Made by a program: the position numbers and the translations under genes. A stretch of DNA of 63,250 nt, filler included. It is 6 parts of 6 records of this genome, joined end to end, with 100 filler letters (N's around TTAATTAATTAA, not from the genome) between each part and the next. Parts side by side here need not be neighbours in the genome. Positions count along the whole stretch, not along the records: positions 49,897 to 63,250 come from SRR31156797_4153; 5 more parts are not named here. The stretch is one strand, 5' to 3'. Shown here piece after piece: positions 23,550 through 61,786 of this stretch (the first letter of the stretch is position 1; every line of letters begins with the position of its first letter). The notes beneath the pieces were generated by a model. It saw only the letters and a program-made list of their open reading frames with translations. It had not been told where the DNA came from and ran no database searches.

Positions 23550-24197
23550 TTATGGACACCCCAATTTAGAATCAAGTTTATTTTTATAAAAGTTCATCAG
23601 TTCATTATTTTCTGTCAAATTATTATCATGCTTTCGATATCGATAAAGAGATAAATTAACATGGCCAATTTTATATTTATCTTCAAATCGCCGGCGTAAT
23701 TCGACTTCTTCCATTGCCAGGTATTCAGGGTTGTATAGACCAATATCGAACAACAAATCTTTTCTGAACATAATGCCACATGCTATTGGGTTTTGAGTCC
23801 CGTCTTCCACACTAATCACTATACCTTCGTCATTGATAATATCAAAATCACAGCTTATAGCACCCCAGTTTTTATTCTGTGCTAAAAATAAAGACTCAAC
23901 TAGTATCAAGTGCTCGCTAATATAATCATCAGCATCAACATGGACAACATATTTTCCAATAGCTCTTTTAATACCGATATTACGTGCCGCTGACAGACCA
24001 ACATTTTCTTCGAGATGGATGGGTCTAATAAATCCTATATATGAATCCATGACATCGCGGGTTTCGTCTGTTGATGCATCATTGACGACGATCACTTCAT
24101 ATTTGTTTTTTGGATAATTTTGATTTAAAGCACTTCTGATTGCTCTACCCAAATATCTGGCATAATTATGACATGTTATAACAATACTAAATTCCAT
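23550..24197 (-). CDS. Glycosyltransferase family 2
   Basis: FSIVITCHN, VVNDASTD, GLSAARNIG, DADD. Confidence 0.92.
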   Translation of the reverse strand: MEFSIVITCHNYARYLGRAIRSALNQNYPKNKYEVIVVNDASTDETRDVMDSYIGFIRPIHLEENVGLSAARNIGIKRAIGKYVVHVDADDYISEHLILVESLFLAQNKNWGAISCDFDIINDEGIVISVEDGTQNPIACGIMFRKDLLFDIGLYNPEYLAMEEVELRRRFEDKYKIGHVNLSLYRYRKHDNNLTENNELMNFYKNKLDSKLGCP

Positions 24198-25278: not shown

Positions 25279-27325
25279 ATAGTTTGCAGTCTATTTCCTT
25301 ATTGTTCAAAAGAACTGAAATTTCAGAAAATACAGTATCAAATGCAGAAAGGTATTTTTTTATATGGCTCTCATTATGAGCATACATAGCATAATAATTT
25401 GTAGATGCCAGGAAGCCATGTTCTAACATTTTTTGTATAAATAGCGCTTTTATTTTTGAGGCATTTTCACAGTTAAAAGCAAAATGGCTAAGAGGGGCAA
25501 TACCACTTACACTTATTGGTAAATTATGTTTTTTGGATTTTTCATTCCATCCATCCTGCATCATTTGACCTAAATGACAAAGATGTTTATGAGCCTCTAA
25601 CTTCTGATGTTTTTGAATCATTGCTATTGCTGCAACAGTACCTATTCTTTCAGTCCAATAGGTACTGCTGATAAATGTTGTCTGAGCAGCCTCCATGTAC
25701 TTTTCTTTGCCGATCACTGCTGCAATAGGGTATCCATTGCCAAGGGCTTTTGAAAAGACGGCAATGTCCGGTACAAGATCAAGCAATAAATGGGCGCCCC
25801 CACAATTCAATCGAAAACCGGAAGAAATTTCATCTGTAATTAAAACGATTCCATATTTGTTTGATAATTTCCGTACTTTTTTAAGAAATCCTTTTTTAGG
25901 TGGTTCATTACGGATGGGTTCAATAATGATTGCAGCCAATTCATCCTGGTTCTTTAAAAGAATTTCTTCAAGCTCTTCAATTTTATTGTAATGAAAGGGC
26001 AGAGCGCTTCCAGCTAAACATTTTGGAACACCTTTAGGCTCAAGGCCCGGTAAGTGAATCCCATTCAGGTTATTTTTATTTTTTAAATTTGCAGCCAGAT
26101 ACCAATCATGCCATCCATGGTATCCACAAAAAGCAACCTTATCTTTTCCCGTTGATGCCCGGGCGATTCTTACTGCTATAGTCATTGCTTCCCCTCCTGT
26201 CCGAGCATATCTGACTTGCTCAGCCCAAGGGTGAAGATTGCATAGTAATTCTGCAAGTTCTACTTCTTCAGGGCAATTCAAAGAACAGTTAGTTCCATTC
26301 CTGATTGATAAACTGACTGCCTGATCAACGTCACTATCAGTATAACCTAAAATATTTGCACCAACACTATTGATGCACATATCAATATAGTGATTCCCAT
26401 CTAAATCCCAGACCTCTGCTCCTCTTGTTTTAGAGAAATACCCTGGCCAGACCCCAGAAGAGAATTGATCAGGCCTTTTTGAAAGCAGTTGTGACATACC
26501 CGGAATTAATTTTTGTGCTTGGATCTGGGTTTCAATCGATTTTGGAATTTTTATTTTCGGGGTTGTTGTTTTTGATTCATCACTCAGTGATTGTTTATAG
26601 CCCTCATTTCTTTGGTATTTTATGTTTTTTAGAATCATTTCTGGATTCTTTGTTAACTCAGATACATATTGTAGCCATGAATAATTTTCCGGAGTTTTTT
26701 CTATTAAATACCTAATCACTTCAAAATCGTTTTCTTCATCTACGGTCAAGCGAATATTTGAAAAATCAATAGGGAAAGAATAATTAAAAACTTTAAACAA
26801 ACTTTGGCCAGAGTGATTTGAATTATTATAAATAAATGGGGTAACATGCTCGCGCTCTGAAAATTTTTTAGCTTTTTGCCATGCGACCTTCAGGGCAGAA
26901 AATGAAAAAACTTCAATGTCCATTCCATCAGGGTAGCTTGGCTCCAAAGTGTTCGACACATAGTCAAAATCATTATTATCAAAATAATTGATGATTTCAT
27001 CAATTAACCGATAATCAATTAATGGACAATCGCCAGTTATCCTTACAACAGTATTTGCATAGTATGTTTTACCGGCAGTATAGTATCTATCTAAAACATC
27101 ATTTTCACTACCCCGGAAACAATTAACACCCCATTCTTTACACAGGGCCTCAATTATGTCGTCTTGTCGGGAATTACTCGTAGCAACGATTATATTTTCA
27201 AGATTAGTCGATTGTTGAAGCCGCTTAATTAGATGCCATAACAAAGGTTTATCTTTAATTTTTTTAACTACTTTGCCTGGTAAACGTGTTGATCCGATTC
27301 TTGCTTGAACTATTGCAATGGCCAT
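25238..27325 (-). CDS. Fusion of SpsF-like cytidylyltransferase and class III (GSA-aminomutase-like) aminotransferase
   Basis: N-terminus QARIGSTRLPGKV, GSENDVLDRY, RITGDCP, REHVT, RLTVD; C-terminus WDLDGNHYID, GYHGW, IEP, DEISSGFR, FSKALGNG. Confidence 0.9.
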   Translation of the reverse strand: MAIAIVQARIGSTRLPGKVVKKIKDKPLLWHLIKRLQQSTNLENIIVATSNSRQDDIIEALCKEWGVNCFRGSENDVLDRYYTAGKTYYANTVVRITGDCPLIDYRLIDEIINYFDNNDFDYVSNTLEPSYPDGMDIEVFSFSALKVAWQKAKKFSEREHVTPFIYNNSNHSGQSLFKVFNYSFPIDFSNIRLTVDEENDFEVIRYLIEKTPENYSWLQYVSELTKNPEMILKNIKYQRNEGYKQSLSDESKTTTPKIKIPKSIETQIQAQKLIPGMSQLLSKRPDQFSSGVWPGYFSKTRGAEVWDLDGNHYIDMCINSVGANILGYTDSDVDQAVSLSIRNGTNCSLNCPEEVELAELLCNLHPWAEQVRYARTGGEAMTIAVRIARASTGKDKVAFCGYHGWHDWYLAANLKNKNNLNGIHLPGLEPKGVPKCLAGSALPFHYNKIEELEEILLKNQDELAAIIIEPIRNEPPKKGFLKKVRKLSNKYGIVLITDEISSGFRLNCGGAHLLLDLVPDIAVFSKALGNGYPIAAVIGKEKYMEAAQTTFISSTYWTERIGTVAAIAMIQKHQKLEAHKHLCHLGQMMQDGWNEKSKKHNLPISVSGIAPLSHFAFNCENASKIKALFIQKMLEHGFLASTNYYAMYAHNESHIKKYLSAFDTVFSEISVLLNNKEIDCKLFGRPSAKGFNRLN

Positions 27326-44477: not shown

Positions 44478-45139
44478 GATCTGCTCCGGCTGATTCTATT
44501 GAGTCGGTTGATGGCTAAGAGGGCCAGGAAACTGACCGGGATGATCGCCAGCGACATGTACATGGCGTCGTCATAACGCATGGCTTCCACTGCTTCATAA
44601 ATGGCGATGGAAGCTACCTTTGTAGAGCCGGGAATAGACCCGCCGACCATGAGGATAACTCCGAATTCCCCAAGGCTGTGGGCAAATACCAGCATAGCCG
44701 AGGCAGCCAGTCCGGGGAGGCTGTTGGGCAGCACCACCCGGAAAAAGGTGGCTGTGGAAGAAAGCCCCAGCACTGCAGCGTTCTCCAGCAACCGGATATC
44801 CAGTTTTTCAAAGGCGGCGCGCATGGGCTGTACAGCGAAAGGCAGATTGTAGACCAGCGAGGCCAGCAATATGCCGGAAAAGCTGAAGACCATGCGTTCT
44901 CCGGTTAAGTCACTCCAGAAACCTCCCAGCGGCCCCTGTGGCCCCATGACTATAAGCAGTCCGAAGCCGAGGACCGTGGGGGGAAGCACCATGGGGAGAG
45001 AAACAACAGCATCAATCAAGCTTTTGCCTTTGAAATCAAAGAAAGCAAGAATGTAAGCGATAGGCGCGGCAACAACCGGGATGAACAGGGTTGTAGCCAC
45101 AGCCAGTTTTGCCGAGATATAAAGCGGGTAGAAATCCAT
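44474..45139 (-). CDS. modB: Molybdate ABC permease
   Basis: LPMVLPPTVLG, FAHSLGEFGVILMVGG. Confidence 0.93.
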   Translation of the reverse strand: MDFYPLYISAKLAVATTLFIPVVAAPIAYILAFFDFKGKSLIDAVVSLPMVLPPTVLGFGLLIVMGPQGPLGGFWSDLTGERMVFSFSGILLASLVYNLPFAVQPMRAAFEKLDIRLLENAAVLGLSSTATFFRVVLPNSLPGLAASAMLVFAHSLGEFGVILMVGGSIPGSTKVASIAIYEAVEAMRYDDAMYMSLAIIPVSFLALLAINRLNRISRSRS

Positions 45140-45885
45140 TAGTCATAACCGTATTTTTTCTTGATGGAAGTAGCTTCAGGACCGGACAGGAATTCTACGA
45201 ATTTTCGGGCCGCGTCTTTGTGTACAGATGATTTGAGGATACAGGCTGCCTGAATTACCGGAGGGGCTTCTTTCACGACCACAAAGCCACCTTTTTTACC
45301 AGTGGGGGTAAACATGGATGAGTAAGCGCAGAATCCGGCGTCAGCAGCTCCGGTAGAAGCAAATTGGAAGGCTTGGGCAATGGTCTGGGCATAAACAAGT
45401 TCCGGTTTAACCTGGTCCCATAGCTTGGCTTGCTGCAAGGCTTGCATGGCGGCAGTGCCATAAGGAGCGGTTTCAGTGTTGGCAATGGCAATTTTTTTGA
45501 ATTTGCCGTCCATTATTGTTTTCTGCCAGCTCTTTTCGATTGTATTTTTGTATTTGGACCAAAGAACCACCTTTCCCTTAGCATAAACAAAAGGAGTTTC
45601 AGCCATCCCGTCATGGTAGAGTTTCTGGGGGCGGCGTTCATCAGCAGCCAGAAAAACATCAAAAGGGGCACCGTTAACTATTTGGGCGTAGAGTTTACCG
45701 GTGGAGGTATAGGTGGCTTGGACTTCAATGCCGCTGGCCTTTTTAAAAGCGGGGATGATTTCTTTCATGGCTGGCATGAAGTTGGCCGCCTGAGCGATCA
45801 TAAGGTCGGCAGCGTTGGCCGTAAGGGGTAGGGCAAGTAATAGTATCAGAAGCGGGGTGAGGATGAGGACACTGAATCGTTTCAT
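45139..45885 (-). CDS. modA: Molybdate periplasmic binding protein
   Basis: AQAANF, STGKLYAQI.NGAPFDVFLAAD, APYG.AA. Confidence 0.93.
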   Translation of the reverse strand: MKRFSVLILTPLLILLLALPLTANAADLMIAQAANFMPAMKEIIPAFKKASGIEVQATYTSTGKLYAQIVNGAPFDVFLAADERRPQKLYHDGMAETPFVYAKGKVVLWSKYKNTIEKSWQKTIMDGKFKKIAIANTETAPYGTAAMQALQQAKLWDQVKPELVYAQTIAQAFQFASTGAADAGFCAYSSMFTPTGKKGGFVVVKEAPPVIQAACILKSSVHKDAARKFVEFLSGPEATSIKKKYGYD

Positions 45886-45976
45886 TATCTGTTCTCCATT
45901 TTGAAATTGAGGTCGTCCTGAATTGGCTTTATCAGTGTCTTATGCTTATGCAGGGGGCGGTCTAAATTACAAACCG

Positions 45977-46002
45977 GTCACGTATTTTTATAAAAACGTG
46001 AC
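45977..46002. promoter_or_regulatory. 26-bp palindrome GTCACGTATTTTTATAAAAACGTGAC, probable TunR operator
   Basis: 11 of 13 positions pair; lies between the divergent modA and regulator genes. Confidence 0.7.
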
Positions 46003-46021
46003 TACCCGAAAGGTTATTCAA

Positions 46022-47101
46022 GTGCAGAACAAAGGAATCGGAAATCAGAAATCTCAGGCCGGAGAAAGCAGGCTTGCTCCGGCGAAAGTCTTTGATGTTC
46101 CTGAAAATATACTCCATCTAGATGGCCGTGAACTTTCAGCTCTGGAAGATGAATTCCGTAGTTGGAAAAAAGGGGTTACTCGTGCGGATTACGTCCGGTC
46201 CCGCACAAGGGTTTATTGCCTTTTTCTGGTACTGCGGCATACCGGAGCTAAACTTGGCGAAATACTCGGGCTTGATGAGCGCAGGAATATCGACCTTTCC
46301 AGAACTGTTGTCATGCTCGGTCGGGAAGGGCAGGAGCGGGAAGTCCCCTTGCCGCAATCGGTATGCCGTGAACTTAAGGGCTTGATTGACGGCCCCATGG
46401 GGATCGGGCTTGAGGGGGAACTTTTTCATCTGGACCCCGGATATGTACGCCGGACTTTTTACGAGCGGGCCGAGTCCTGCGGACTGGAGCGTAAAAAAGG
46501 TGCGCCTTCGGTGCTCCGCCGTTCAAGGGCTGTGGAGCTTCTGCGTAACGGGGTGCCGTTGGGCGTAGTTCGTAAGGTACTCGGTCAATCTTCAACTGAC
46601 CTTGCTGCGGTCTATCAGGAATGGTCTTCAGGTGATGTAAAGAATATTGTCCGTCGCATGGCCCTTGAGGAAAATGCGCTCAAGTCCAGTGCCCGCAATA
46701 CGTTCATCGGGCAGGTCGGTTCCGTGCGCCGTGACGGTGTGCTGGCCGATGTGGAATTTGAAACATCCGAAGGGTTTGCCATCAGTTCGGTCATTACTCT
46801 TGAAAGCCTTTACAAGCTTGATTTGGAAGTAGGTATTTCTGTCTCTGCTACAGTTAAAGCACCGCTGGTGGCGGTTCGACCTTTAAAAGGGACAGGCACA
46901 AGCTCCCGTAATTGTGTTCCTGCGAAAGTAACATCAATCAAGCAGACGGAAATTCTGGCTGAAGTTTCCGGTGAATCTCTCGGGGGAACCCAGATGTGCG
47001 CGCTGGTGACCTCGTGGTCCATTGAAGAGGAAGGACTGTTTGAGGGAGCTGACGTGGAGTTTTGTTTTAAAGCTTTATCAGTGGTTCTGCATGCGGTGTG
47101 A
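46022..47101 (+). CDS. tunR: TunR-type Mo/W-responsive regulator: tyrosine-recombinase-like domain + tandem TOBE domains
   Basis: LRHTGAKLGE, REVPL and LRRSRAVELL..LGQ (Xer fold without the full catalytic set), then SSARNTF..VKAP and SSRNC..FKA TOBE repeats. GTG 46022 is preferred over 45923 because the longer ORF overlaps the operator. Confidence 0.82.
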   Translation: MQNKGIGNQKSQAGESRLAPAKVFDVPENILHLDGRELSALEDEFRSWKKGVTRADYVRSRTRVYCLFLVLRHTGAKLGEILGLDERRNIDLSRTVVMLGREGQEREVPLPQSVCRELKGLIDGPMGIGLEGELFHLDPGYVRRTFYERAESCGLERKKGAPSVLRRSRAVELLRNGVPLGVVRKVLGQSSTDLAAVYQEWSSGDVKNIVRRMALEENALKSSARNTFIGQVGSVRRDGVLADVEFETSEGFAISSVITLESLYKLDLEVGISVSATVKAPLVAVRPLKGTGTSSRNCVPAKVTSIKQTEILAEVSGESLGGTQMCALVTSWSIEEEGLFEGADVEFCFKALSVVLHAV

Positions 47102-49739: not shown

Positions 49740-49796
49740 GCCAACGTAGCTCAGTCGGTAGAGCAGCTGATTCGTAACCAGCAGGCCGTCGGTTCA
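49740..49796 (+). tRNA. tRNA-Thr(CGT), 3' truncated by contig end
   Basis: GCCAACG-TA-GCTCAGTCGGTAGAGC D-arm, anticodon loop TTCGTAA, start of the T-arm GTCGGTTCA. Confidence 0.88.
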
Positions 49797-50138: not shown

Positions 50139-51470
50139 TTAACCAATTTGTTTTGATTCAGGCAAATTCCATTCTTCTACCATTTTAATTTCAAGTTGTT
50201 CCAGTTCGGAAAGTACCGGTTCGTAAATGGATTTTGTAACCGGAATGTGTACACCGGTATCTTTAATTTTTTCTTCCAAGATCAACTTTACTGCAATAGC
50301 CGCAGGAAGTGCAACCGTTCGGGCTATCGAAGTATCTTCATCTGTAGCAAAATCGAGCAGCCTCGACTGAACCACTTCTTTTTCGCCATTTGCATTTTCA
50401 TAAAGAAAAGAGTGAAGCAGAATTACCATATCCCGGGAACCCTCTGGCAGCATCATTTTATCCAGCATTAAATTTGTTGTTAAATCAAATGTCGTTCCCT
50501 CTTTTATTTGAATACGCTCTTTACTGAAAAGTCCAAGCCAGTCCATGGCAGCAATTGCCGGGCTGTTTAGTGTTATTCCAAGCCGTTCAGCTACTTTTTC
50601 TTTTACGTTGGCCGGGTAAACACCAATGTTTTCTGCAATAATCTCTTTGTATGTTTTTCCTTCAAATTTTCGTTTTTCGTACGAAACCATTCCCAGTGCT
50701 TTTATGGCATCCATACTTTCGCACCACTTCTGATATCTAAAAGTTCCGCGATACATGGTTTCGATGTTTGGTAAATTATATATATCGATATACGCCAGCG
50801 AATCGCGGTTTGGGTACACTTCCATTGTGCCAACTTCGGGGAATTCGATTTGTAATGGATTTTTAAAAAGGTTTTCTGTCGGGATATTTACAATCTTTTT
50901 GTTTTTCAGGAATTTTGCACCGTTATTTCCGGCAATTATTACTCCCTTTGGCGACCACGAGAATTTATATTTAAACGGATTGTCTGCTTCTTCAGGAGCT
51001 GCAAGTGCTCCGCAGAGTGAATAGAATTCTTTTATTTTTCCTCCATTATCCTGTATTTTATTGATAATCCGCATGGCTGTCATGTGATCAAATCCGGGAT
51101 CGACACCAATTTCATTTAGAACAATTGTTCCTGCCTTTTTTGCTTTTGCATCCAGCTTTTTCATTTCTTCCGAAACGTAAGAAGTGGTAACCATGTGTTT
51201 TTTGTTTTTTATACAAAGCTGGGCAACAGACACGTGGAGTGCAAATGGGAGGAGACTAACAGTGAGATCGTGAGTGGCAATTAATTTATCAAGAGCCTCT
51301 AAATCATCGGTAGTCCAGGAAACTGTTTTCCCGTTTTTCCTTCCCCGAATTAATTTATCTGCTTTTGCAACTGTTCGGCTTGCGATAGTAATATTATAGT
51401 TTTGATTAAGAAGATAATCGATTATTGGTTTGGCAACCATTCCGGCTCCTAATATAAGTACTTCCTTCAT
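50139..51470 (-). CDS. Saccharopine dehydrogenase (Lys9-like, glutamate-forming family)
   Basis: LGAGMV, SLLP, TTSY, NEIGVDPGFDHM, YKFSWSP, YPNRDS, RGTFRY, IARTVALP. Confidence 0.9.
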   Translation of the reverse strand: MKEVLILGAGMVAKPIIDYLLNQNYNITIASRTVAKADKLIRGRKNGKTVSWTTDDLEALDKLIATHDLTVSLLPFALHVSVAQLCIKNKKHMVTTSYVSEEMKKLDAKAKKAGTIVLNEIGVDPGFDHMTAMRIINKIQDNGGKIKEFYSLCGALAAPEEADNPFKYKFSWSPKGVIIAGNNGAKFLKNKKIVNIPTENLFKNPLQIEFPEVGTMEVYPNRDSLAYIDIYNLPNIETMYRGTFRYQKWCESMDAIKALGMVSYEKRKFEGKTYKEIIAENIGVYPANVKEKVAERLGITLNSPAIAAMDWLGLFSKERIQIKEGTTFDLTTNLMLDKMMLPEGSRDMVILLHSFLYENANGEKEVVQSRLLDFATDEDTSIARTVALPAAIAVKLILEEKIKDTGVHIPVTKSIYEPVLSELEQLEIKMVEEWNLPESKQIG

Positions 51471-51917: not shown

Positions 51918-53483
51918 ATGAAGAGTAAGATTGATCATATCGATATTGTTGAACTGATGCATTCATATGATTTTGATCCGGAAACTATTGATACCATTCA
52001 AACCGAAAAATTACTTCCCCCGGCATTAATAAACCGCCTTCATAAAGCATTTCCCCAATATTCAGGTTTTACAAGAAAAGGCAATGCTTTGTTTAATGGA
52101 AATACACATTATACAGGTATAAATGGTTTTAGGAAGATTATTGAAATTCTTAAAGAGAAGGGGATTATTATAAAAGATGTAAGAGAGCGGGAGTTCTTTA
52201 TCGAGGTTTACCGGTTTATGGCTACTAAACACATATTAAATAGCATCGATTGGGAAAACTTTGAAAAGGATCCAATTTATCATCTTATTTTTCCTCAACC
52301 TGACATGATAAATAAAGCGGATGTTCAACAATACCTTAAAGCACCGAATAAACAGGAACGGGAAAAAGCAGTAGAGGCTTATCGGTATAAAACCAATCCA
52401 CACGATGGAAAACAAAAACTGAATAAACCATTCTTTATAAATAACAAAGGTAAACTGGAGATTTTGGAAGGTAGCCAACATAAATATCCACCCATCAAAT
52501 TAATTCTCGATAGTGGTACGCAAAATTGTTTTGCTTTTTGCACTTATTGTTTCAGACATGCTCAGGTGCGGGGCGATGAGGATATGTTTGTTCAGCGCGA
52601 TATAAAGCAGGTTCATAATTACCTGAAGAATCATAAAGAAATAAGTGATATTCTTATTACCGGAGGAGATGGGGGATACATATCGTATGAACGATTAAAA
52701 GAATATGTCACTCCGTTGATGGATGATAAGGAATTGCTTCATATTCGAACTGTACGCATCGGGTCAAGAGGTATTACTTTTCATCCTGAATATTTTTTGA
52801 ACAGCAAATTCAAAAAGATTTTAGAATTGCTTAAAAATGTTGTGGATTGTGGTATTCAGGTGGTTTGGATGTCGCACTTTTCTACACCCCGTGAGTTGAT
52901 GAATCCCGGTGCAGTGGCAGCCATAAGACGATTGAAAAATTACGGACTTACTTTGAAAAGCCAGAGTCCGATTATGAACAGGATTAGCCTCTATAAAAAT
53001 GAAATGGGGAAAGTTGATGTCGATCTCTCGGCGCAAAACTGGATTGATTTGGGCAATGTACTGGCAATGCTTGGTGTAGGTTTCCATTCCATGTATTGCG
53101 CAAGACCTACCGGAGAACATCATTATTTTACTGCTCCGCTGGCCGATATTGTTAAAATCCATAATAAGGTTTTTCGTTCACTGGCATCAATTAACCGCCC
53201 CTCGAGGTATATAACAATGACTTCTTCGGCAGGGAAAACTTCATTGATGGGCACTATCGAAATAAATGGAGATAAAGTTTTTGTGCTGAAATTTAACGAG
53301 GCCAGAAATATGACCTGGATGGATCAGGTATATTTTGCAGAATATGATGAACATGAAACTGTTATTGAAAAATTAAAACCATACAAAGCCGGAAAATATT
53401 TTTATGAAGACGAACTGGCAGAGATAGAAAACAGGCTGGAAGAAGCTTTAAAAAAGGAAACTTTAAAAGCTGAATCAAGATGA
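51918..53483 (+). CDS. KamA-family radical SAM/PLP 2,3-aminomutase, substrate unknown
   Basis: QHKYP, CFAFCTYCFR, LITGGD, RIGSR, SHF..PREL, QSP; candidate PLP Lys in SSAGK. Confidence 0.88.
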   Translation: MKSKIDHIDIVELMHSYDFDPETIDTIQTEKLLPPALINRLHKAFPQYSGFTRKGNALFNGNTHYTGINGFRKIIEILKEKGIIIKDVREREFFIEVYRFMATKHILNSIDWENFEKDPIYHLIFPQPDMINKADVQQYLKAPNKQEREKAVEAYRYKTNPHDGKQKLNKPFFINNKGKLEILEGSQHKYPPIKLILDSGTQNCFAFCTYCFRHAQVRGDEDMFVQRDIKQVHNYLKNHKEISDILITGGDGGYISYERLKEYVTPLMDDKELLHIRTVRIGSRGITFHPEYFLNSKFKKILELLKNVVDCGIQVVWMSHFSTPRELMNPGAVAAIRRLKNYGLTLKSQSPIMNRISLYKNEMGKVDVDLSAQNWIDLGNVLAMLGVGFHSMYCARPTGEHHYFTAPLADIVKIHNKVFRSLASINRPSRYITMTSSAGKTSLMGTIEINGDKVFVLKFNEARNMTWMDQVYFAEYDEHETVIEKLKPYKAGKYFYEDELAEIENRLEEALKKETLKAESR

Positions 53484-54202
53484 TAAATAAGATAATAAAA
53501 TCGACAAAAGAGGCAGTTGAAGACATATTTGATGGGGCAACGATAATGATTTCAGGATTTGGTGAGGCTGGTAGTCCGGTTGAATTAATTCATGCATTGG
53601 TCGACCAGGGGGCAAAAAACCTGACAATTGTGAGCAATAACGCAGGTAGCGGGCATGTTGGGCTGGCAGCACTTATTGAAAACCGCCAGGTAAGCAAAAT
53701 AATTTGCTCCTTTCCGCGAACTGCCATTTCAGTCGTTTTTCCCAATTTGTATAAAAAAGGTGAAATTGAATTGGAATTGGTCCCACAAGGAACGCTGGCA
53801 GAAAGAATACGCGCAGCCGGAGCAGGTATCCCCGCATTTTATACACCTACTTCAGTAAATACCTTATTGGCTGAAGGGAAAGAACAACGCGAATTTAGAG
53901 GAATGAAATATGTTATGGAAAAAGCAATTTATGCCGATTTTGCTCTTGTTAAATGTGCAACTGCAGATGAATATGGAAATTTACTATATAACAAAACCGC
54001 TCGCAATTTTGGACCGGTAATGTGTATGGCAGCAAGAACCACAATTGTTCAGGCAAAAACAGTGGTTGATAAAGGGAAAATCAATCCTGAACATGTTGTT
54101 ACACCGGGCATTTTTGTACATAAGGTTGTTGAGGTTTCTAATCCCTCAAATGAGTCGAAGTTAGTAGCTGATAATATTAAATATCATGGTGTCAAATACT
54201 GA
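53480..54202 (+). CDS. pcaI: 3-oxoadipate CoA-transferase-like subunit A
   Basis: DGATIMISGFG.AG.P.ELI, SNNAG.G..GLAAL, IICSFPR, PQGTLAERIRA, ARNFGP; ATGA overlap with the upstream gene. Confidence 0.85.
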   Translation: MINKIIKSTKEAVEDIFDGATIMISGFGEAGSPVELIHALVDQGAKNLTIVSNNAGSGHVGLAALIENRQVSKIICSFPRTAISVVFPNLYKKGEIELELVPQGTLAERIRAAGAGIPAFYTPTSVNTLLAEGKEQREFRGMKYVMEKAIYADFALVKCATADEYGNLLYNKTARNFGPVMCMAARTTIVQAKTVVDKGKINPEHVVTPGIFVHKVVEVSNPSNESKLVADNIKYHGVKY

Positions 54203-54842
54203 AAAAATAGGGTGGAATATGGGTGAAATGGCACAAAAAGTGGCTCTGGATATTCCCGATGGTACTTATGTAAACTTAGGCATTGGTATTCCTGAAATAG
54301 TAGCTGATTACATTCCTGAAGGACGTGAAGTTATCTATCATACGGAGAATGGACTATTGGGAATGGGAAAAGTGGCTGAAAGTTGGAAACAGGATCCCGA
54401 ACTGGTAAATGCAGGTAAAAAATATGTAACTGCAATACCAGGAGCCGCTTACTTTCACCATGCCGACAGTTTTGCCATGATAAGAGGCGGCCATATTGAT
54501 ATCTGTGTTTTAGGTGCCTACCAGGTTTCGGAAGAAGGAGATTTGGCAAACTGGTCGACAGGAAATCCGGAAGATATTCCGGCAGTGGGGGGAGCAATGG
54601 ATTTGGTTGCCGGTGTAAAAACCATTTACGTAATTACAAAACATAGTACTAAAACCGGGAAGCCAAAAATCGTAAAATCCTGCACTTATCCTATAACAGG
54701 AAAAAATGTTGTTAGCCGAATTTATACAAATCTGGCAATAATTGATGTTAAGAGTAAAAGACTGGTTGTGTGGGAATTAGCGCCGGGCGTAACATTTGAA
54801 TTTCTTCAGCAAAGAACAGGGGCAAAATTGCATCAGGAATAA
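54186..54842 (+). CDS. pcaJ: 3-oxoadipate CoA-transferase-like subunit B
   Basis: YVNLGIGIP, HTENG (catalytic Glu), SFAMIRGGH, DLANW, PAVGGAMDL. Confidence 0.85.
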   Translation: MVSNTEKIGWNMGEMAQKVALDIPDGTYVNLGIGIPEIVADYIPEGREVIYHTENGLLGMGKVAESWKQDPELVNAGKKYVTAIPGAAYFHHADSFAMIRGGHIDICVLGAYQVSEEGDLANWSTGNPEDIPAVGGAMDLVAGVKTIYVITKHSTKTGKPKIVKSCTYPITGKNVVSRIYTNLAIIDVKSKRLVVWELAPGVTFEFLQQRTGAKLHQE

Positions 54843-54859
54843 AACCTTAAACTCATTTT

Positions 54860-56194
54860 ATGCCGCAAAAAAGTAATAGTGAAAAGCTTTATAAAAAGGC
54901 TCAGAAAGTAATTCCGGGAGGAGTGAGCAGGAATACGGTATTTAGAAAACCATTCCCAAACTATACGAATTCTGCATCAGGATGTTATATTACAGATGTT
55001 GAAGGAACGGTGAGGATCGATTTTGCGAATAACATGGCAGCATTAATTCATGGTCATTCCTTTCCTCCGGTAATCGATGCTGTAATAGAACAATTGAGAA
55101 AAGGAACAGCATACACCCTGGCCTCGGAAATTGAACTCAATTTTGCTAAAATGTTAATTGAAAGAGTACCGGGTTTCGAACGCATTCGTTTTATGAATTC
55201 GGGTACTGAAGCAGTAATGGCCATGATCAAAGCATCAAGGGCGTATACCGGAAAATCGAAAATTGCAAAAGCCGAAGGATCATATCATGGTACTTACGAT
55301 TTTGCAGAAGTAAGCCAGACTGCCGATCCTTCCAATTGGGGGGAAATAAATAATCCAATTAGCGTTCCGTTAGCGTTTGGAACACCTCCTTCGGTTTCAA
55401 AAGACGTTATTATTTATCCGTATAACAATATTGAAAATACGATATCCATTTTGAATAAGCAGGCCGATAAAATTGCTTGTGTGATTGTCGATCCTGTGCC
55501 GCACAGAGTTGGGTTGATGCCCGGGGAAAGTAATTTTATTGAAGCTGTTTATGATTGGACCAGAAAAAATGATGTCTTATTGGTTTTTGATGAGGTTATC
55601 ACTTTCAGGGTAAATTATGCCGGGGCACAACAAAACTACAATGTGAAACCAGATTTAACTTCGCTGGGAAAAATTATAGGAGGGGGTTTCCCTGTTGGTG
55701 CTGTTGCCGGACGCGAAGAAGTTATGCGTGTTTTTGATCCTCATGAAAAAAAATTGCTATTACCTCATTCCGGTACATTTTCTGCCAACCCAATAACCAT
55801 GACTGCAGGTTACCAGGCAATGAAACATTATAACTTAAAAACAGTAAAAAAAATAAATGCGCTGACAAAAGTTGCTGTAAATCAGATATATGAAGTTATA
55901 AGGCTGGTTGATGTTCCTGTTTCAATTTGTGGTGCCGGTTCAATGTTTAGGATACATTTGAAACCAACTCCTCCAACCGCCTACCGGGAAGCATATCAGG
56001 ATGTTGAGGCTAAAAAAGTAATAAGCAACTTACTTGATTTTATGTATTATAAAGAAAATATCCTCATGATTAATACTTTTTCATGCATGCTTTCGACTGT
56101 TATGACACAAAAGGAAATTGACCGACTATCAGAAGGATTATTTAACGCCTTTAGTGCATTAAAACCAATGATTAATAAATTAAACAAGGTGTAA
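54860..56194 (+). CDS. Class III PLP aminotransferase (GSA-aminomutase/beta-transaminase-like)
   Basis: IPGGVSR, HGH, RFMNSGTEA, GSYHG, FDEVITFR, GKIIGGGFP, HSGTFSANP. Confidence 0.9.
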   Translation: MPQKSNSEKLYKKAQKVIPGGVSRNTVFRKPFPNYTNSASGCYITDVEGTVRIDFANNMAALIHGHSFPPVIDAVIEQLRKGTAYTLASEIELNFAKMLIERVPGFERIRFMNSGTEAVMAMIKASRAYTGKSKIAKAEGSYHGTYDFAEVSQTADPSNWGEINNPISVPLAFGTPPSVSKDVIIYPYNNIENTISILNKQADKIACVIVDPVPHRVGLMPGESNFIEAVYDWTRKNDVLLVFDEVITFRVNYAGAQQNYNVKPDLTSLGKIIGGGFPVGAVAGREEVMRVFDPHEKKLLLPHSGTFSANPITMTAGYQAMKHYNLKTVKKINALTKVAVNQIYEVIRLVDVPVSICGAGSMFRIHLKPTPPTAYREAYQDVEAKKVISNLLDFMYYKENILMINTFSCMLSTVMTQKEIDRLSEGLFNAFSALKPMINKLNKV

Positions 56195-56196
56195 AT

Positions 56197-57399
56197 ATGA
56201 AAGAAGTTTTTATATGCGATGCTATTCGCACTCCGGTAGGAAAATATGGCGGCAGTTTGTCATCTGTTCGTGCAGACGATTTGGCGGCAATTCCGTTAAA
56301 AACTCTTCTTAAAAGAAATCCTGAAATCGATCCTGCTGAAATTGACGATGTTATTTTGGGATGTACTAATCAGGCTGGCGAAGATAATCGCAATATAGCC
56401 CGAATGGCTTTATTATTAGCTGGATTTCCTGAATCTGTGCCGGGAGTTACTGTGAATCGTCTATGTTCATCGGGAATGGAGGCGGTTGCAATTGCGGCAA
56501 GGGCTATTAAAGCAGGAGAAGCCGAACTAATCGTGGCTGGAGGAGCAGAAAGCATGTCAAGAGCACCAATGGTAATGTCAAAATCCACAAAAGCTTTTTC
56601 AAGAAATACAGAATTTTATGATTCAACCATTGGCTGGCGTTTTGTAAACAAGGAATTTCAAAGGCAGTTTGGAACCGACCCCCTAATAAAAACTGCAGAA
56701 AACCTGGCAGACGAATACAAAATAAGTCGTGAAGATCAGGATCGTTTTGCACACAATAGTCAACTTAAAACAGCTGAAGCACAAAAAAGTGGTAAGCTGT
56801 CAAAAGAAATTGTTCCGGTTTCTGTTTTCCAAAAAAAGTTTGAACCGGTTTTGATAGAAAAGGATGAACATCCCAGGCTTACTTCTCTGGAGAAGCTGGC
56901 ATCGTTAAAACCTGTACTGGGAGAAAGATGTACTGTAACAGCTGGAAATGCATCGGGAATTAACGATGGGGCTGCAGGAATGATAGTGGCTTCGGAGCGA
57001 GCTGTTAAAAAGTTTAATCTTATTCCCAAAGTCCGAATTCTTGGTGCTCAGGCCGCCGGAGTGCCTCCGCGTATAATGGGTATCGGGCCGGTTCCTGCAA
57101 CCAATAAATTATTAAAACGATTGGGAATGCGGTTAGAACAAATGGACATTATTGAATTGAACGAAGCTTTTGCAGCTCAATCATTGGCATGCATCCGTGA
57201 ATTTCGTCTTGATGATAATGATGAAAGGATAAATCCACTTGGTGGAGCAATCGCACTTGGGCATCCGCTTGGAATGTCGGGGGCAAGGCTGCTTACCACT
57301 GCTTTTTATCAGTTGCAAAATAGAAATGCAAAGTACGCACTTTGCACCATGTGCATTGGTGTGGGCCAGGGACTATCAATGGTCTTGGAAAAAGTATAG
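56197..57399 (+). CDS. pcaF: 3-oxoadipyl-CoA thiolase (PcaF/PaaJ type)
   Basis: [65 protein letters not shown]. Confidence 0.9.
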
Positions 57400-57447: not shown

Positions 57448-58989
57448 ATGAAAACTGGAATTTCAAAAGATTTAAAATCACTGGGCATTAAAAATGTAAA
57501 TTATGGTGTATGTACCGGAACTTTATGGAAGGAAACAAAAGGAAATTTAGTAGAGTCGTTTTCACCCTCCGATGGAGAATTAATTGCAGGAGTGCACCAG
57601 GCAACTGCCTACGATTATCAGGAAGTAATTGAAACAGCCAAATCAGCTTTTAAAACATGGAGAATGATTCCTGCTCCAAAACGGGGAGAAATTGTTCGGC
57701 AAATTGGAAATGAATTACGAAAATTCAAAGAGCCACTGGGTAAACTGGTTTCATACGAAATGGGAAAGATACTACAGGAAGGATTGGGCGAAGTTCAGGA
57801 GATGATTGATATTTGCGATTTTGCAGTTGGGCAGTCGCGTCAACTGTACGGTTTTACTATGCACTCGGAACGCGAAAAGCACCGCATGTACGATCAATAC
57901 CATCCACTGGGAATTGTTGGCGTAGTATCGGCTTTTAATTTTCCGGTTGCTGTTTGGGCATGGAATGCCATGATTGCTTTGGTAGCCGGCGATGTTGTCG
58001 TTTGGAAACCTTCATCGAAAGTGTATTTATGTGCCGTGGCAGTGCATAAAATTGTTGCGAATGTTTTAAAGGATAATAATGTTCCCGAAGGCGTGCTTAA
58101 CCTCGTTGCTGCCGATTCAAAACAATTGGGCGATCTGCTTTTTAGCGATAAAAATATTCCGCTGGTATCTTTCACCGGATCAACCCGAATTGGAAAAAAA
58201 GTGGGGCGCCTGGTTGGAGAACGACTTGGGAAATCGATTCTTGAACTGGGAGGAAACAATGCTATAATTATTACACCAAATGCCGATTTGGAAATGGCAT
58301 TACGAGCTGTTGTATTTGGAGCCGTTGGCACTTGCGGACAACGTTGTACTTCTACACGAAGAATAATTGTTCACGATTCCGTGTATGATAAATTCAAAGA
58401 GAAATTATTATCGGCATACAAACAACTTCCTATTGGACATGCTCTCGATGCAAAAACATTGGTTGGTCCGCTGGTCGATAAATATGCAGTTCAGAATTAT
58501 CTCGATGCCATTGAAAAAGTAAAAAGTGAAGGTGGGAAAATTATTGTTGGAGGAGAAGTTTTATCAGGAAATGGATTTGAATCGGGATGTTTCGTAACCC
58601 CCTCAATTGCTGAAGTAGAAAATCATCATGAAATTGTTCAGGACGAAACTTTCGCTCCTTTACTTTATATGATAAAATATTCGGTTTTAGAGGAAGCAAT
58701 TCAATTGCATAACGATGTTCCTCAGGGATTATCTTCGGCAGTTTTTTCAACCAATATGCTGGAAACCGAGAAATTCCTCTCACACGAAGGTTCCGATTGC
58801 GGTATTGCCAATGTAAATATCGGAACTTCGGGAGCAGAAATTGGAGGTGCTTTTGGTGGTGAGAAAGAAACAGGTGGTGGCCGTGAATCGGGTTCCGATG
58901 CCTGGAAAGCATACATGCGACGACAAACAAATACAATAAATTACAGCACTGAATTGCCACTGGCGCAGGGAATTGAGTTTAAGGTTTAA
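57448..58989 (+). CDS. ALDH7-type 2-aminoadipate semialdehyde / P6C dehydrogenase
   Basis: PAPKRGEIVRQIG, GEVQEMIDICDFAVGQSRQLYG, SAFNFPVAVW, LELGGNNA, GQRCT, GGRESGSDAWK.YMRR, LPLAQGI.F. Confidence 0.92.
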   Translation: MKTGISKDLKSLGIKNVNYGVCTGTLWKETKGNLVESFSPSDGELIAGVHQATAYDYQEVIETAKSAFKTWRMIPAPKRGEIVRQIGNELRKFKEPLGKLVSYEMGKILQEGLGEVQEMIDICDFAVGQSRQLYGFTMHSEREKHRMYDQYHPLGIVGVVSAFNFPVAVWAWNAMIALVAGDVVVWKPSSKVYLCAVAVHKIVANVLKDNNVPEGVLNLVAADSKQLGDLLFSDKNIPLVSFTGSTRIGKKVGRLVGERLGKSILELGGNNAIIITPNADLEMALRAVVFGAVGTCGQRCTSTRRIIVHDSVYDKFKEKLLSAYKQLPIGHALDAKTLVGPLVDKYAVQNYLDAIEKVKSEGGKIIVGGEVLSGNGFESGCFVTPSIAEVENHHEIVQDETFAPLLYMIKYSVLEEAIQLHNDVPQGLSSAVFSTNMLETEKFLSHEGSDCGIANVNIGTSGAEIGGAFGGEKETGGGRESGSDAWKAYMRRQTNTINYSTELPLAQGIEFKV

Positions 58990-59052: not shown

Positions 59053-60387
59053 ATGAAACAAATTCTGATTTTTGGTGCTGGTCGGTCCAGTAAGGTATTA
59101 ATTCAGTATTTAACTGAAAATGCTGAGCAATTCGATTGGCATATTACTGTTCTTGATGTTGGAAAATTTGAAAAGAAAAATATTCAAAGGTTCAATTATA
59201 AAAGTGTAGATGTAAACGACGAGCCGGCGCGGGATGAAGAAGTTAAGAATGCCGATTTGGTAATTTCAATGCTTCCTGCCAGGTTCCACTTGCTTGTGGC
59301 TGAATCTTGTCTGAAATTTTCAAAAAACCTGCTTACAGCATCGTACGAAACGGCAGAAATGAAAAGACTGGAAACAGAGGTGAAAGATAAAGGATTGTTC
59401 TTTTTAAATGAATGTGGTCTTGACCCGGGCCTCGATCATATGTCGGCAATGAAAATTATAAACCAAATTAAAAACAATGGGAATGAACTTTTAAGTTTCG
59501 AATCGTTTACCGGTGGGTTGGTGGCTCCCGAGTCAGATAATAATCCGTGGCATTACAAATTTAGCTGGAACCCCCGAAATGTAGTTCTTGCCGGAAAAGA
59601 CGGACCGGCAAAATTTATTCAGAATGGTAAATTTAAATACATTCCTTACAACCGGCTATTCAGACGAACAGAATTGATTGAAATAGAGAATTACGGATTA
59701 TTTGAAGGGTATGCCAATCGCAATTCTTTAAAATATATTCAGCAATATAATTTACAGGGTATTCCAACTATTTACCGGGGTACTTTGCGGCGACCCGGAT
59801 TTTCACGCGCATGGAATGTTTTTGTTCAGCTGGGGGCAACCGACGATTCTTATTTCATGGAAAATGTAGAGAATATGACGTACCGTGAGTTTATAAATTC
59901 ATTCTTATATTATCATCCTTCCGATTCAGTTGAGTTGAAATTATACCATTACATGCACATCGATCAGGATTCAGATATTATTCAGAAACTGAAATGGCTG
60001 GGTATTTTTGATAATACAAAAATTGGATTAAAACGAGCTACTCCGGCTCAGATTCTGGAACATATCCTGAAACAAAAATGGCAACTTCTGCCTGATGATA
60101 AAGACATGATTGTAATGTGGCATAAATTTAATTACCGTGAAAAATCTTCAGGAATTGAAAAAGAGCTAACCAGTTCGCTGGTAGTTAAAGGAGAAAACAG
60201 AGAAAATACTGCCATGGCAAAAACGGTTGGACTTCCATTGGCAATTGCAGCTAAATTGGTGCTTACCCGAAAAATAAATTTGACAGGAATGTACATTCCA
60301 ACATCACACAAAATTTATGCGCCTATTTTGAATGAACTTCAAACTTTTGGAATTCAATTCTCTGAAAAAGAACAGGTAGTGCATTAA
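59053..60387 (+). CDS. Saccharopine dehydrogenase (second paralog)
   Basis: FGAGRSS, ISMLP, TASY, NECGLDPGLDHM, YKFSWNP, YANRNS, RGTLR, MAKTVGLP. Confidence 0.9.
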   Translation: MKQILIFGAGRSSKVLIQYLTENAEQFDWHITVLDVGKFEKKNIQRFNYKSVDVNDEPARDEEVKNADLVISMLPARFHLLVAESCLKFSKNLLTASYETAEMKRLETEVKDKGLFFLNECGLDPGLDHMSAMKIINQIKNNGNELLSFESFTGGLVAPESDNNPWHYKFSWNPRNVVLAGKDGPAKFIQNGKFKYIPYNRLFRRTELIEIENYGLFEGYANRNSLKYIQQYNLQGIPTIYRGTLRRPGFSRAWNVFVQLGATDDSYFMENVENMTYREFINSFLYYHPSDSVELKLYHYMHIDQDSDIIQKLKWLGIFDNTKIGLKRATPAQILEHILKQKWQLLPDDKDMIVMWHKFNYREKSSGIEKELTSSLVVKGENRENTAMAKTVGLPLAIAAKLVLTRKINLTGMYIPTSHKIYAPILNELQTFGIQFSEKEQVVH

Positions 60388-60400
60388 TTTTATATTGGTT

Positions 60401-60440
60401 AAGGATTTCATCTGTAAGCTGACGGATGACATCCTTTGTT
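60401..60440 (+). terminator. Hairpin terminating the catabolic operon
   Basis: AAGGATTTCATCTGT/ACGGATGACATCCTT stem followed by a T-rich tract. Confidence 0.6.
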
Positions 60441-60514
60441 TTTCCCGACTTTCTCACATTTTGTTTTCTCCCTATTTCATCTATCTTTGGTTTTATCATT
60501 CTAAGCCAATTATC

Positions 60515-61786
60515 ATGAACCGGAGATTTTTACTTTTTACACTTGTAATTTTTTTTACCGTATTTAATTCCTTTGCACAAGACGCGGAGAACTGGACTCA
60601 TTTTCGCAGCACCGCAATGGATGGACATGCACAGGTAGAAAAAGCCCCATTACAGTGGAACGATTCAACGAATATAGTTTGGAAAACTCCGGTAAAAGGA
60701 TTGGGATGGTCTTCTCCGGTAATTTTTGAAAATCAAATTTGGATTACTTCAGCAAGTAAAGAGGGGAATGAGTTTTATACGCTGTGTTTCGATTTGGAAA
60801 CGGGAGAATTATTAGATGATAAAACAATATTTACCAGCGAAGAGCCGCAGCGAATACACGGAACAAATTCGTATGCCACTCCAACGCCTTGTATCGAAGA
60901 AGGTTTTGTATATGTTCATTACGGAACTTTTGGAACAGCTTGTATAAATACCAATAATTTTGAAGTGGTTTGGAAACGCGAAGACATGCCTTGTGATCAT
61001 ATGCAGGGGCCGGCTTCTTCTCTTATTCTTCATGAAAATATGTTAATTGTTCATTTGGAGGGAACTGAAAATCCGTATGTTGCAGCACTGGATAAACGCA
61101 CCGGTGAAACCATTTGGAAAAGTGTTCGTCCGGCTGATGTTTATGATCCGCTGGAACCGGTTTTCCGAAAATCATATCAAACTCCAATTGTAATAAATGT
61201 GGGGGGCCGGGAACTGTTAATTAGTAACTCTGCCTTTTTGTGTTTTGCTCACGATGTAAATACCGGCGAAGTGGTTTGGACAATTGAATATGGATACGAT
61301 TCAACCGTGAGTCAGCCACTGTTTTGGAACGGACTTGTTTATGTAAATTCAGGTTGGATTTTTCTGGATGGAAAACCGAATTTTACCAGGCAATATGCAG
61401 TTGATCCAACCGGGACAGGCGATATAACAAAAACACATGTAAAATGGATGTATGAAGATGAGGTTCCGCAAATTCCAACTCCGGTTATTGTTGAAGGAAA
61501 AATGTATATGGTTCACGATCGAGGAATGGTAACCTGTTTGGATGCAACAACCGGCAATGTTATCTGGAAAGAAGAATTAAAAGGGAACTTTAACGCTTCA
61601 CCCATTTATGCTGCCGGAAATATCTATTTCATAAACGTAAAAGGTTATTGCACCATAATAAAACCGGGAGATTCTTTTCAAAAAGTAGCTGAAAACGATA
61701 TCGGTGAAACTGTAAAAGCGGTGCCTGTTTTTGTTCGCGATAAAATGATTTTACGAACGGATAAGAATTTGTACTTAATAAAATAA
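60515..61786 (+). CDS. Exported PQQ-like (BamB-type) beta-propeller protein
   Basis: Signal peptide from ATG 60515 (TATCTTTG -7 element at 60482); ENW..FR, GWSSPV, YATPTP and repeated TG..W motifs. Confidence 0.85.
   Translation: MNRRFLLFTLVIFFTVFNSFAQDAENWTHFRSTAMDGHAQVEKAPLQWNDSTNIVWKTPVKGLGWSSPVIFENQIWITSASKEGNEFYTLCFDLETGELLDDKTIFTSEEPQRIHGTNSYATPTPCIEEGFVYVHYGTFGTACINTNNFEVVWKREDMPCDHMQGPASSLILHENMLIVHLEGTENPYVAALDKRTGETIWKSVRPADVYDPLEPVFRKSYQTPIVINVGGRELLISNSAFLCFAHDVNTGEVVWTIEYGYDSTVSQPLFWNGLVYVNSGWIFLDGKPNFTRQYAVDPTGTGDITKTHVKWMYEDEVPQIPTPVIVEGKMYMVHDRGMVTCLDATTGNVIWKEELKGNFNASPIYAAGNIYFINVKGYCTIIKPGDSFQKVAENDIGETVKAVPVFVRDKMILRTDKNLYLIK

Follow-up and report, generated by a model that had tools for sequence, protein, structure and literature searches.

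A KamA-fold radical SAM aminomutase in a widely conserved operon, with 2-aminoadipate as its predicted substrate

Which amino acid is handled by a KamA-like radical S-adenosylmethionine (SAM) enzyme that appears to have exchanged the residues with which its relatives hold lysine? The question is raised by a gene in a 63,250-nt stretch of DNA (the window), which consists of six parts joined end to end with filler letters; the last part, from SRR31156797_4153, carries the gene. An initial annotation had suggested that a dicarboxylic substrate such as 2-aminoadipate would fit this protein. We propose, with a probability of roughly 65%, that it is a 2,3-aminomutase of the KamA fold, dependent on pyridoxal 5'-phosphate (PLP), a [4Fe-4S] cluster and SAM, that its substrate is L-2-aminoadipate rather than lysine, and that it feeds a route from 3-aminoadipate through 3-oxoadipate to acetyl-coenzyme A (CoA) and succinyl-CoA. 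L-2-aminoadipate is favored because the catalytic apparatus of lysine 2,3-aminomutase (LAM) is kept, the residues at the positions that bind the distal end of the substrate are charge-reversed, and the products of neighboring genes would make 2-aminoadipate and consume a C6 3-oxo dicarboxylate.

The open reading frame (ORF) is intact, and the long N-terminal region of its 521-amino-acid (aa) product, pointed out in the initial annotation, exceeds that of LAM by ~70 residues; an insertion is also present at ~141-172. The CxxxCxxC motif and the Arg that follows it were located at C204, C208 and C211, with R213 two residues past the third cluster Cys (C211, F, R213). R213 aligns with R134 of LAM in a MAFFT superfamily alignment. 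The GGD motif is retained, and the probable PLP lysine of the earlier reading could be assigned to K440, which fell on K337 of the LAM structure 2A5H in all four alignments described below. Asp is absent from both segments FHSMYCARPTGEHHYF and RPSRYITMTSSAGK, where the Arg residues are R396, R427 and R430. No Cys occurs after C394 in the protein, and the C-terminal Cys (zinc) motif is indeed missing, as had been claimed.

The nearest NCBIfam model is that of the KamA family, yet the aminomutase scored far under every curated KamA-family cut-off. It reached 72.8 bits against a cut-off of 199.2 for the KamA family as a whole (TIGR00238), matching over residues 183-370 only, and failed the cut-offs for lysine 2,3-aminomutase (TIGR03820; 70.1 versus 525.4 bits), glutamate 2,3-aminomutase (TIGR04368; 59.3 versus 650), arginine 2,3-aminomutase (TIGR04468; 57.9 versus 600) and EpmB (TIGR03821; 52.7 versus 369.3). 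Pfam returned Radical_SAM only, and this below threshold (21 versus 29.5 bits). The sole relevant solved relative found by sequence was 2A5H (E 1.2e-12), over residues 184-357 only.

Similarity at the level of the fold was far more extensive. An AlphaFold2 model built on a 67-sequence alignment (A1) had a mean predicted local distance difference test score of 92.3 and a predicted template-modeling score of 0.92. Foldseek placed 2A5H at the top of its matches to this model (E 1.7e-15), followed by generic radical SAM enzymes at ~1e-4. Superposition with VIA-align gave a Z of 29.2 and a root-mean-square deviation of 3.1 A over 331 residues at ~20% identity, and the next entry had a Z of 12.3. 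As judged from the model, the aminomutase has the LAM fold along almost its entire length, because the Z is 29.2 and the alignment pairs model residues 12-498 with 2A5H chain residues 3-404. A model strand at 388-393 directly precedes the R396 region.

In LAM, D293 and D330 reportedly bind the epsilon-ammonium group of lysine and R134 the alpha-carboxylate, and glutamate 2,3-aminomutase is said to have both of these Asp residues replaced; the Lys that stands in place of D293 in the latter is reportedly Lys332. The initial annotation had assigned the two Asp residues to YQCD and VVDAPGGGGK of clostridial LAM. Both motifs occur in the 2A5H sequence, D293 in the former and D330 together with K337 in the latter, as counted along 2A5H in its alignment with a canonical KamA from Draconibacterium orientale. 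Canonical KamA was detected in only one of the 61 Bacteroidia-class genomes sampled, and comparison sequences were therefore taken from other genomes.

Four alignments were used in order to map these two positions onto the aminomutase. In a global hhalign alignment of the family alone (81 rows; number of effective sequences, 2.1) with 13 KamA-family sequences, T433 fell on D330, while D293 was met, via gaps and with low per-column confidence, by A395, which speaks against R396 at that position. Alignment of a paralogue family from Prolixibacteraceae (see below) with the same 13 sequences, also using hhalign, was ungapped and placed the Arg of that family on D293. A MAFFT L-INS-i alignment combined 12 family members, 62 intermediate relatives drawn from a 50%-identity library, the two paralogues, the 13 KamA-family sequences and 12 glutamate aminomutase-like proteins. 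Here the segment was ungapped, with MYCARP equivalent to LYQCDL and to IFNCKK, such that R396 shares a column with D293 and with the Lys of the glutamate-type proteins; T433 and K440 coincided with D330 and K337, respectively. Finally, hhalign alignment of the 67-sequence profile A1 with 25 canonical sequences paired R396 with D293 and T433 with D330 at per-column confidences of 7-9. R396 is preferred over A395 because the three more diverse alignments concur with higher per-column confidence. By sequence alignment, R396 takes the place of D293 of LAM and T433 that of D330, with a one-residue ambiguity at the first position; in either register the residue at the D293 column (R396 or A395) is non-acidic. 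The by-eye reading of the initial annotation, in which Arg takes the place of Asp in these segments, is refined accordingly to R396 at D293 and T433 at D330 in three of the four alignments.

Proteins of better-defined type served as controls for these columns. Asp/Asp was present in all seven proteins that pass the cut-off for lysine 2,3-aminomutase (L081, L086, L087, L090, L115, L116 and L117), and the six KamA-family comparison proteins under that cut-off comprised four with Asp/Asp, one with Glu/gap and one with His/Asn. Lys/Thr was present in 12 of 12 clostridial glutamate aminomutase-like proteins, which have TIGR04368 as their best model but, at 573.7-601.4 bits (three of the 12 were re-scanned), lie below its cut-off of 650 and are not verified members. 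None of the proteins in 301 Clostridia-class genomes passed that cut-off. These Clostridia-class proteins (L103-L114) match TIGR04368 over its full length, and their Lys/Thr pair differs from the Lys/Asn reported for characterized glutamate 2,3-aminomutase.

Conservation was assessed in a pool of 201 sequences, of which 81 came from the window and 80 related loci and 120 were the best matches of a word-index search; 189 were unique. C204, C208, C211, R213, R396 and E400 are invariant (189/189). A395, K440 and R430 are each found in 188 sequences, with one gap in the case of both K440 and R430, and T433 in 186, with Ser in two and one gap. Only four Cys columns, C204, C208, C211 and C394, are conserved above 80%, and a LAM-type zinc site is hence absent from the family; in LAM the site is presumably formed by C268, C375, C377 and C380. 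The canonical KamA of D. orientale bears a C-terminal Cys cluster.

Of the 8000 candidates scored in the word-index search, 1308 had E <= 0.001. The top 120 of these were 64-76% identical to the aminomutase, 498-547 aa in length, and named, if at all, 'hypothetical protein' or, by one source, 'L-lysine 2,3-aminomutase'. The doubt that the initial annotation cast on the latter name is justified in view of the TIGR03820 score. A search of the 50%-identity library produced 1347 matches at E <= 0.001, 70 of them at E <= 1e-30, and the sole full-length representative within the family was P0122 (57% identity). The next full-length match was P0125 (37%), after which came many proteins of 400-470 aa with ~30% identity. 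A FastTree phylogeny covered 420 columns and 86 of the 101 rows; the remaining 15, which lacked a cluster Cys or the Lys column, had been dropped. The family was monophyletic (support 1.0) with P0125 as its sister (0.995), and it lay inside a large uncharacterized KamA-like clade (0.951), apart from canonical KamA and the glutamate-type group; the multiple alignment with KamA and glutamate-type relatives that the initial annotation had advised thus sets the enzyme outside canonical KamA. A single orthologous function across the family is likely, because the clade is tight (1.0) and collapses to one full-length representative at 50% identity. A search for the genomic context of P0125 did not find it and returned one 31%-identical locus, and a plasmid search for the family gave no match. 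Among sequencing runs, one DNA run and no RNA run was listed as a carrier.

Carriers of the family can also encode a true KamA. D. orientale has one (770.5 bits) in addition to its family member, and all five further carrier genomes contained a separate KamA-family protein above the TIGR00238 cut-off. A second KamA-like paralogue family of 431 aa was observed in Prolixibacteraceae (L118:9286-10638 in D. orientale; L119:9451-10821 in Maribellus luteus). It is 32% identical to the window aminomutase by hhalign, passes no NCBIfam cut-off, and sits after mreB-mreC-PBP2-rodA, with a homologue of HglS (2-oxoadipate dioxygenase/decarboxylase) three genes downstream.

The genes around the aminomutase (Table 1) provide a further line of evidence for the substrate. 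From the aminomutase through saccharopine dehydrogenase-type paralogue B, all genes overlap or lie no more than 63 nt apart; following the 4-nt overlap at the start of CoA-transferase subunit A, the successive junctions measure -17, 17, 2, 48, 63 and 7 nt. The last of these separates paralogue B from a PQQ-like gene without an obvious role in the proposed pathway. The initial annotation's idea of a dicarboxylate such as 2-aminoadipate gains support from this operon, which encodes an L-piperidine-6-carboxylate (P6C) dehydrogenase, a beta-transaminase-like enzyme, a CoA-transferase and a 3-oxoadipyl-CoA thiolase.

Table 1. Positions in the window of the aminomutase gene, its diagnostic segments and the adjoining genes (GSA, glutamate-1-semialdehyde)
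Feature	Position	Strand	Support
KamA-like radical SAM/PLP aminomutase; proposed 2-aminoadipate 2,3-aminomutase	51918..53483	+	open ORF, 521 aa
Cluster motif C204-x3-C208-x2-C211 and R213	52527..52556	+	alignment, family conservation
Segment FHSMYCARPTGEHHYF, residues 389-404; R396 at nt 53103-53105	53082..53129	+	
Segment RPSRYITMTSSAGK, residues 427-440; T433 at nt 53214-53216, K440 at nt 53235-53237	53196..53237	+	
3-oxoacid CoA-transferase subunit A	53480..54202	+	TIGR02429, 351.4 bits vs 128.5; overlaps aminomutase stop by 4 nt
3-oxoacid CoA-transferase subunit B	54186..54842	+	TIGR02428, 294.3 bits vs 243.55
Class-III (GSA-aminomutase-like) aminotransferase; proposed 3-aminoadipate transaminase	54860..56194	+	PF00202
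3-oxoadipyl-CoA thiolase (PcaF/PaaJ type)	56197..57399	+	TIGR02430, 649 vs 597; NF006551, 671.4 vs 605
L-piperidine-6-carboxylate (2-aminoadipate semialdehyde) dehydrogenase	57448..58989	+	NF050084, 806.5 bits vs 730
Saccharopine dehydrogenase/reductase-type paralogue B	59053..60387	+	PF16653, PF03435
Saccharopine dehydrogenase/reductase-type paralogue A, divergent	50139..51470	-	PF16653, PF03435
PQQ-like beta-propeller protein, operon end	60395..61786	+	PF13360

The aminotransferase scored under all NCBIfam equivalog cut-offs. Its best solved relative was 6K8H (362.8 bits), followed by ForI, GSA aminomutases and, among the lower matches, 4AO9 and 2YKU, which are beta-phenylalanine and beta-transaminases. 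6K8H is an omega-transaminase from Sphaerobacter thermophilus that, according to PMC10589169, has been applied to beta- and gamma-amino acids. The two saccharopine dehydrogenase-type proteins are ~36-38% identical to each other. Paralogue A matched the saccharopine reductase 1E5L at 301.1 bits, and paralogue B matched 1E5L at 225.6 bits and AASS (5L78) at 230.8 bits. As for regulatory elements, Rfam returned no riboswitch upstream of the operon, a sigma-70 promoter scan was at chance level (31 found versus 34.1 expected), and a terminator scan found 17 versus 9.3 expected from shuffles. An intergenic Rfam tRNA match of 55 nt at 49740-49794 (+), upstream of the saccharopine dehydrogenase gene, was weak (32.4 bits versus a gathering threshold of 29), and ARAGORN predicted no tRNA there.

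The core of this operon is conserved far beyond the window. Of the 80 related loci, all in species-representative genomes, 63 had 4300 nt or more of sequence beyond the aminomutase gene on its downstream side, and the order CoA-transferase A, CoA-transferase B, aminotransferase and thiolase was kept in 61 of these. Counting all evaluable loci, the four genes were present downstream in 72/73, 71/72, 65/67 and 62/63 cases, respectively. The two exceptions among the 63 were L030, in which no aminotransferase match was found at 60% coverage, and L013, in which a P6C dehydrogenase comes directly next. The latter locus (L013:10-3269) is on an uncultured Tangfeifania contig, where the gene after the P6C dehydrogenase encodes a secreted protein that bears a Por C-terminal sorting domain. 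The records belong to Prolixibacteraceae, other Bacteroidales, Lentimicrobiaceae, Ignavibacteria, Balneolales and Rhodothermaceae, with further records from Chlorobiota, Acidobacteria, Clostridia and Desulfuromonadales metagenome-assembled genomes (MAGs).

The module that would convert lysine to 2-aminoadipate is distributed more narrowly, mainly in Draconibacterium, Maribellus, Mariniphaga and Sunxiuqinia. Wide flanks were available for 47 loci; 21 of them carried the P6C dehydrogenase, 20 paralogue B, 15 paralogue A and 14 the PQQ-like gene at the equivalent place. In a Desulfuromonadales MAG, a P6C dehydrogenase above the cut-off lies immediately upstream of the aminomutase, together with a LysR regulator, and in all the P6C dehydrogenase is linked to the aminomutase in three distinct arrangements. 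The flanks in four other lineages consist of unrelated housekeeping genes. In a Clostridia MAG (L064:15665-20260), genes of the Iso_dh, HMGL-like, family-III CoA-transferase and aconitase families come after the five-gene core and may represent another organic-acid module.

By analogy with LAM, we infer that PLP would leave K440 to form an aldimine with the substrate, and that the cluster bound by C204, C208 and C211 would reduce SAM to yield a 5'-deoxyadenosyl radical that abstracts a hydrogen from C3. The amino group would then move from C2 to C3 by way of an aziridinyl radical, after which the hydrogen would be given back. R213 is predicted to hold the alpha-carboxylate, and R396, at the place of Asp293 in LAM, the distal carboxylate, possibly with help from R430, while T433 would stand in for Asp330. 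2-Aminoadipate should be nearly isosteric with lysine, its terminal charge being inverted, and an exchange of Asp for Arg is a plausible specificity switch because the two compounds are close in length and opposite in distal charge.

At the level of the pathway, the two saccharopine dehydrogenase-type paralogues would convert lysine to 2-aminoadipate semialdehyde/P6C, from which the P6C dehydrogenase would form 2-aminoadipate. The aminomutase would turn this into 3-aminoadipate and the class-III transaminase would yield 3-oxoadipate; the CoA-transferase would activate the latter to 3-oxoadipyl-CoA, to be cleaved by the thiolase into acetyl-CoA and succinyl-CoA. Such a route would be independent of oxygen, 2-oxoadipate dehydrogenase and glutaryl-CoA dehydrogenase. 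We lean slightly towards the broader view that this constitutes a previously undescribed, complete anaerobic lysine route via saccharopine, P6C, 2-aminoadipate and 3-aminoadipate, that the Asp293-to-Arg and Asp330-to-Thr reversal defines a new KamA substrate class, and that the core is spread across many, mostly anaerobic, phyla.

Besides the dissenting alignment, several observations weigh against L-2-aminoadipate and the proposed route. The substrate assignment draws on the neighboring genes and on two alignment columns. An acidic residue, the invariant E400, lies only four residues past R396. The 396 column likewise holds Arg in 39 of the 62 intermediate-relative rows (among them the in-family P0122) and in both Prolixibacteraceae paralogues, whose genomic context is unrelated to the operon; the Arg is therefore a trait of a broader uncharacterized clade and not a family signature. 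The CoA-transferase models span acetoacetate as well as 3-oxoadipate enzymes. A P6C dehydrogenase scored above the cut-off in only two of five core-operon genomes, and at E <= 1e-100 none was found in a Clostridia MAG or an Acidobacteria MAG, although these genomes may be incomplete. As for the supply of 2-aminoadipate from lysine, both paralogues match 1E5L and the saccharopine dehydrogenase (SDH) domain of human AASS, and are of the glutamate-forming LYS9/SDH type, while no AlaDH-type lysine-ketoglutarate reductase was found in the window. One of the paralogues may have come to catalyze the lysine-forming step, or may act as a lysine 6-dehydrogenase.

Some of these points would be accommodated if the enzyme acted on a different anionic or neutral amino acid, such as L-glutamate (converted to beta-glutamate and then 3-oxoglutarate), 2-aminopimelate or another intermediate of the saccharopine pathway. 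A basic residue occupies the D293 column in the glutamate aminomutase-like proteins as well (Lys in 12/12), the CoA-transferase subfamily models are unspecific for 3-oxoadipate, and some genomes with the core operon yielded no P6C dehydrogenase. We nevertheless give such a substrate only a small chance. The thiolase passes an equivalog cut-off for 3-oxoadipyl-CoA thiolase (649 versus 597), which indicates a C6 dicarboxylate, and an enzyme that makes 2-aminoadipate is linked to the aminomutase in three arrangements; glutamate in particular is disfavored by the TIGR04368 score and by the separate clade. More improbable still is a KamA-fold radical SAM enzyme with other chemistry, whose target might for example be a CoA ester, a peptide or a protein-bound residue, in the way that EpmB-related systems modify EF-P. 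The surrounding KamA-like clade is large and has no NCBIfam family over cut-off, the protein lacks the zinc Cys motif and carries extra residues at the N-terminus and at ~141-172, and the two Prolixibacteraceae paralogues occur in a non-catabolic context, all of which speaks for such an enzyme. Yet the PLP lysine, the Arg for the alpha-carboxylate and the GGD motif are all retained, and a downstream transaminase whose closest solved relative handles beta-amino acids, syntenic in 65 of 67 evaluable loci, would make sense only if a beta-amino acid were produced.

That the enzyme is a lysine 2,3-aminomutase after all, as some automatic annotations have it, in an operon that degrades beta-lysine, appears highly improbable. 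This reading can appeal to the name given by one source to family members, to the lysine-pathway genes in the window operon and to 2A5H, a LAM, as the closest solved structure. Both Asp columns, however, are non-acidic (R396 in 189/189 and T433 in 186/189 sequences), the AblA model (TIGR03820) is missed by a wide gap (70.1 versus 525.4), true KamA genes coexist in carrier genomes, and no KamDE, Kdd, Kce or Kal homologue is present among the Pfam and NCBIfam matches of the operon genes.

With L-2-aminoadipate as the preferred substrate, the enzyme can be set beside characterized systems. It has in common with LAM of Clostridium subterminale SB4 (2A5H, TIGR03820) the fold, CxxxCxxC, the Arg after the third Cys, GGD, the PLP lysine and, presumably, the radical 1,2-amino shift; it differs in its low identity (~20%), in R396/T433 for D293/D330, in the absence of a zinc Cys motif, in a longer N-terminus, and in clade and operon. 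The logic seen in glutamate 2,3-aminomutase (TIGR04368), in which a basic residue at the place of Asp293 would bind the distal carboxylate, is similar, whereas here the residue is Arg rather than Lys, the model score is 59.3 versus 650 bits, the clade is separate and the gene context suggests a dicarboxylate of six carbons, not five. From the saccharopine pathway and the end of the beta-ketoadipate pathway (PcaIJ/PcaF), the window has SDH-type genes, a P6C dehydrogenase, a CoA-transferase pair and a thiolase. In the known saccharopine routes, 2-aminoadipate is transaminated to 2-oxoadipate, which proceeds via glutaryl-CoA or HglS; here, the aminomutase and the beta-transaminase-like enzyme would instead link 2-aminoadipate to 3-oxoadipate. 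Lysine fermentation in clostridia and fusobacteria proceeds through KamA, KamDE, Kdd, Kce and Kal, with a B12-dependent 5,6-aminomutase after KamA. It is likewise anaerobic, has a radical SAM 2,3-aminomutase as its first enzyme and finishes with steps of the CoA-transferase and thiolase type, but its aminomutase substrate is lysine itself and its downstream enzymes are not among the operon family matches here.

Full-text searches, whose coverage did not extend to subscription journals and patents, found no report of this enzyme or route. The accessible portion of PMC8706239, on a lysine-to-adipate retrosynthesis, does not mention an aminoadipate aminomutase, and that of a review (PMC6411801) confirms the cofactors and tetramer of LAM and gives no residue roles. 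The window contributes a mapping of individual residues with controls, and an operon in which the saccharopine/P6C steps are physically linked to the aminomutase core. Together, these data suggest an aminomutase of the KamA fold for which a new substrate is predicted, in a new pathway assembled from known enzyme types. If this is true, 2-aminoadipate would become the fourth substrate class among radical SAM 2,3-aminomutases, and anaerobes, including sediment and gut-associated Bacteroidota, would have a way to use lysine or 2-aminoadipate that avoids both oxygen-linked and glutaryl-CoA steps. The residue rule of Asp/Asp, Lys/x and Arg/Thr would then predict specificity within the family, the names 'lysine 2,3-aminomutase' and 'hypothetical protein', under which such proteins are repeatedly mis-annotated, could be corrected, and enzymatic access to 3-aminoadipate and 3-oxoadipate would be gained. 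The proposal is directly testable, since cultured species carry the operon, namely D. orientale, D. sediminis, D. mangrovi, Maribellus luteus and M. sediminis.

Two further loci were observed elsewhere in the window. The gene at 45923-47101 (+) encodes a 392-aa protein with a phage-integrase-type (tyrosine recombinase) domain and two TOBE/Mop molybdate-binding domains, and is divergent from molybdate ABC transporter genes (modA, 45139-45885, -). This protein may be a molybdate-responsive regulator in which an integrase-like DNA-binding domain replaces the helix-turn-helix of ModE. At 24187-27325 (-), a radical SAM/SPASM protein adjoins a 695-aa fusion of a CTP_transf_3 cytidylyltransferase and a class-III aminotransferase, and the pair is located within a glycosyltransferase and polysaccharide-export cluster.

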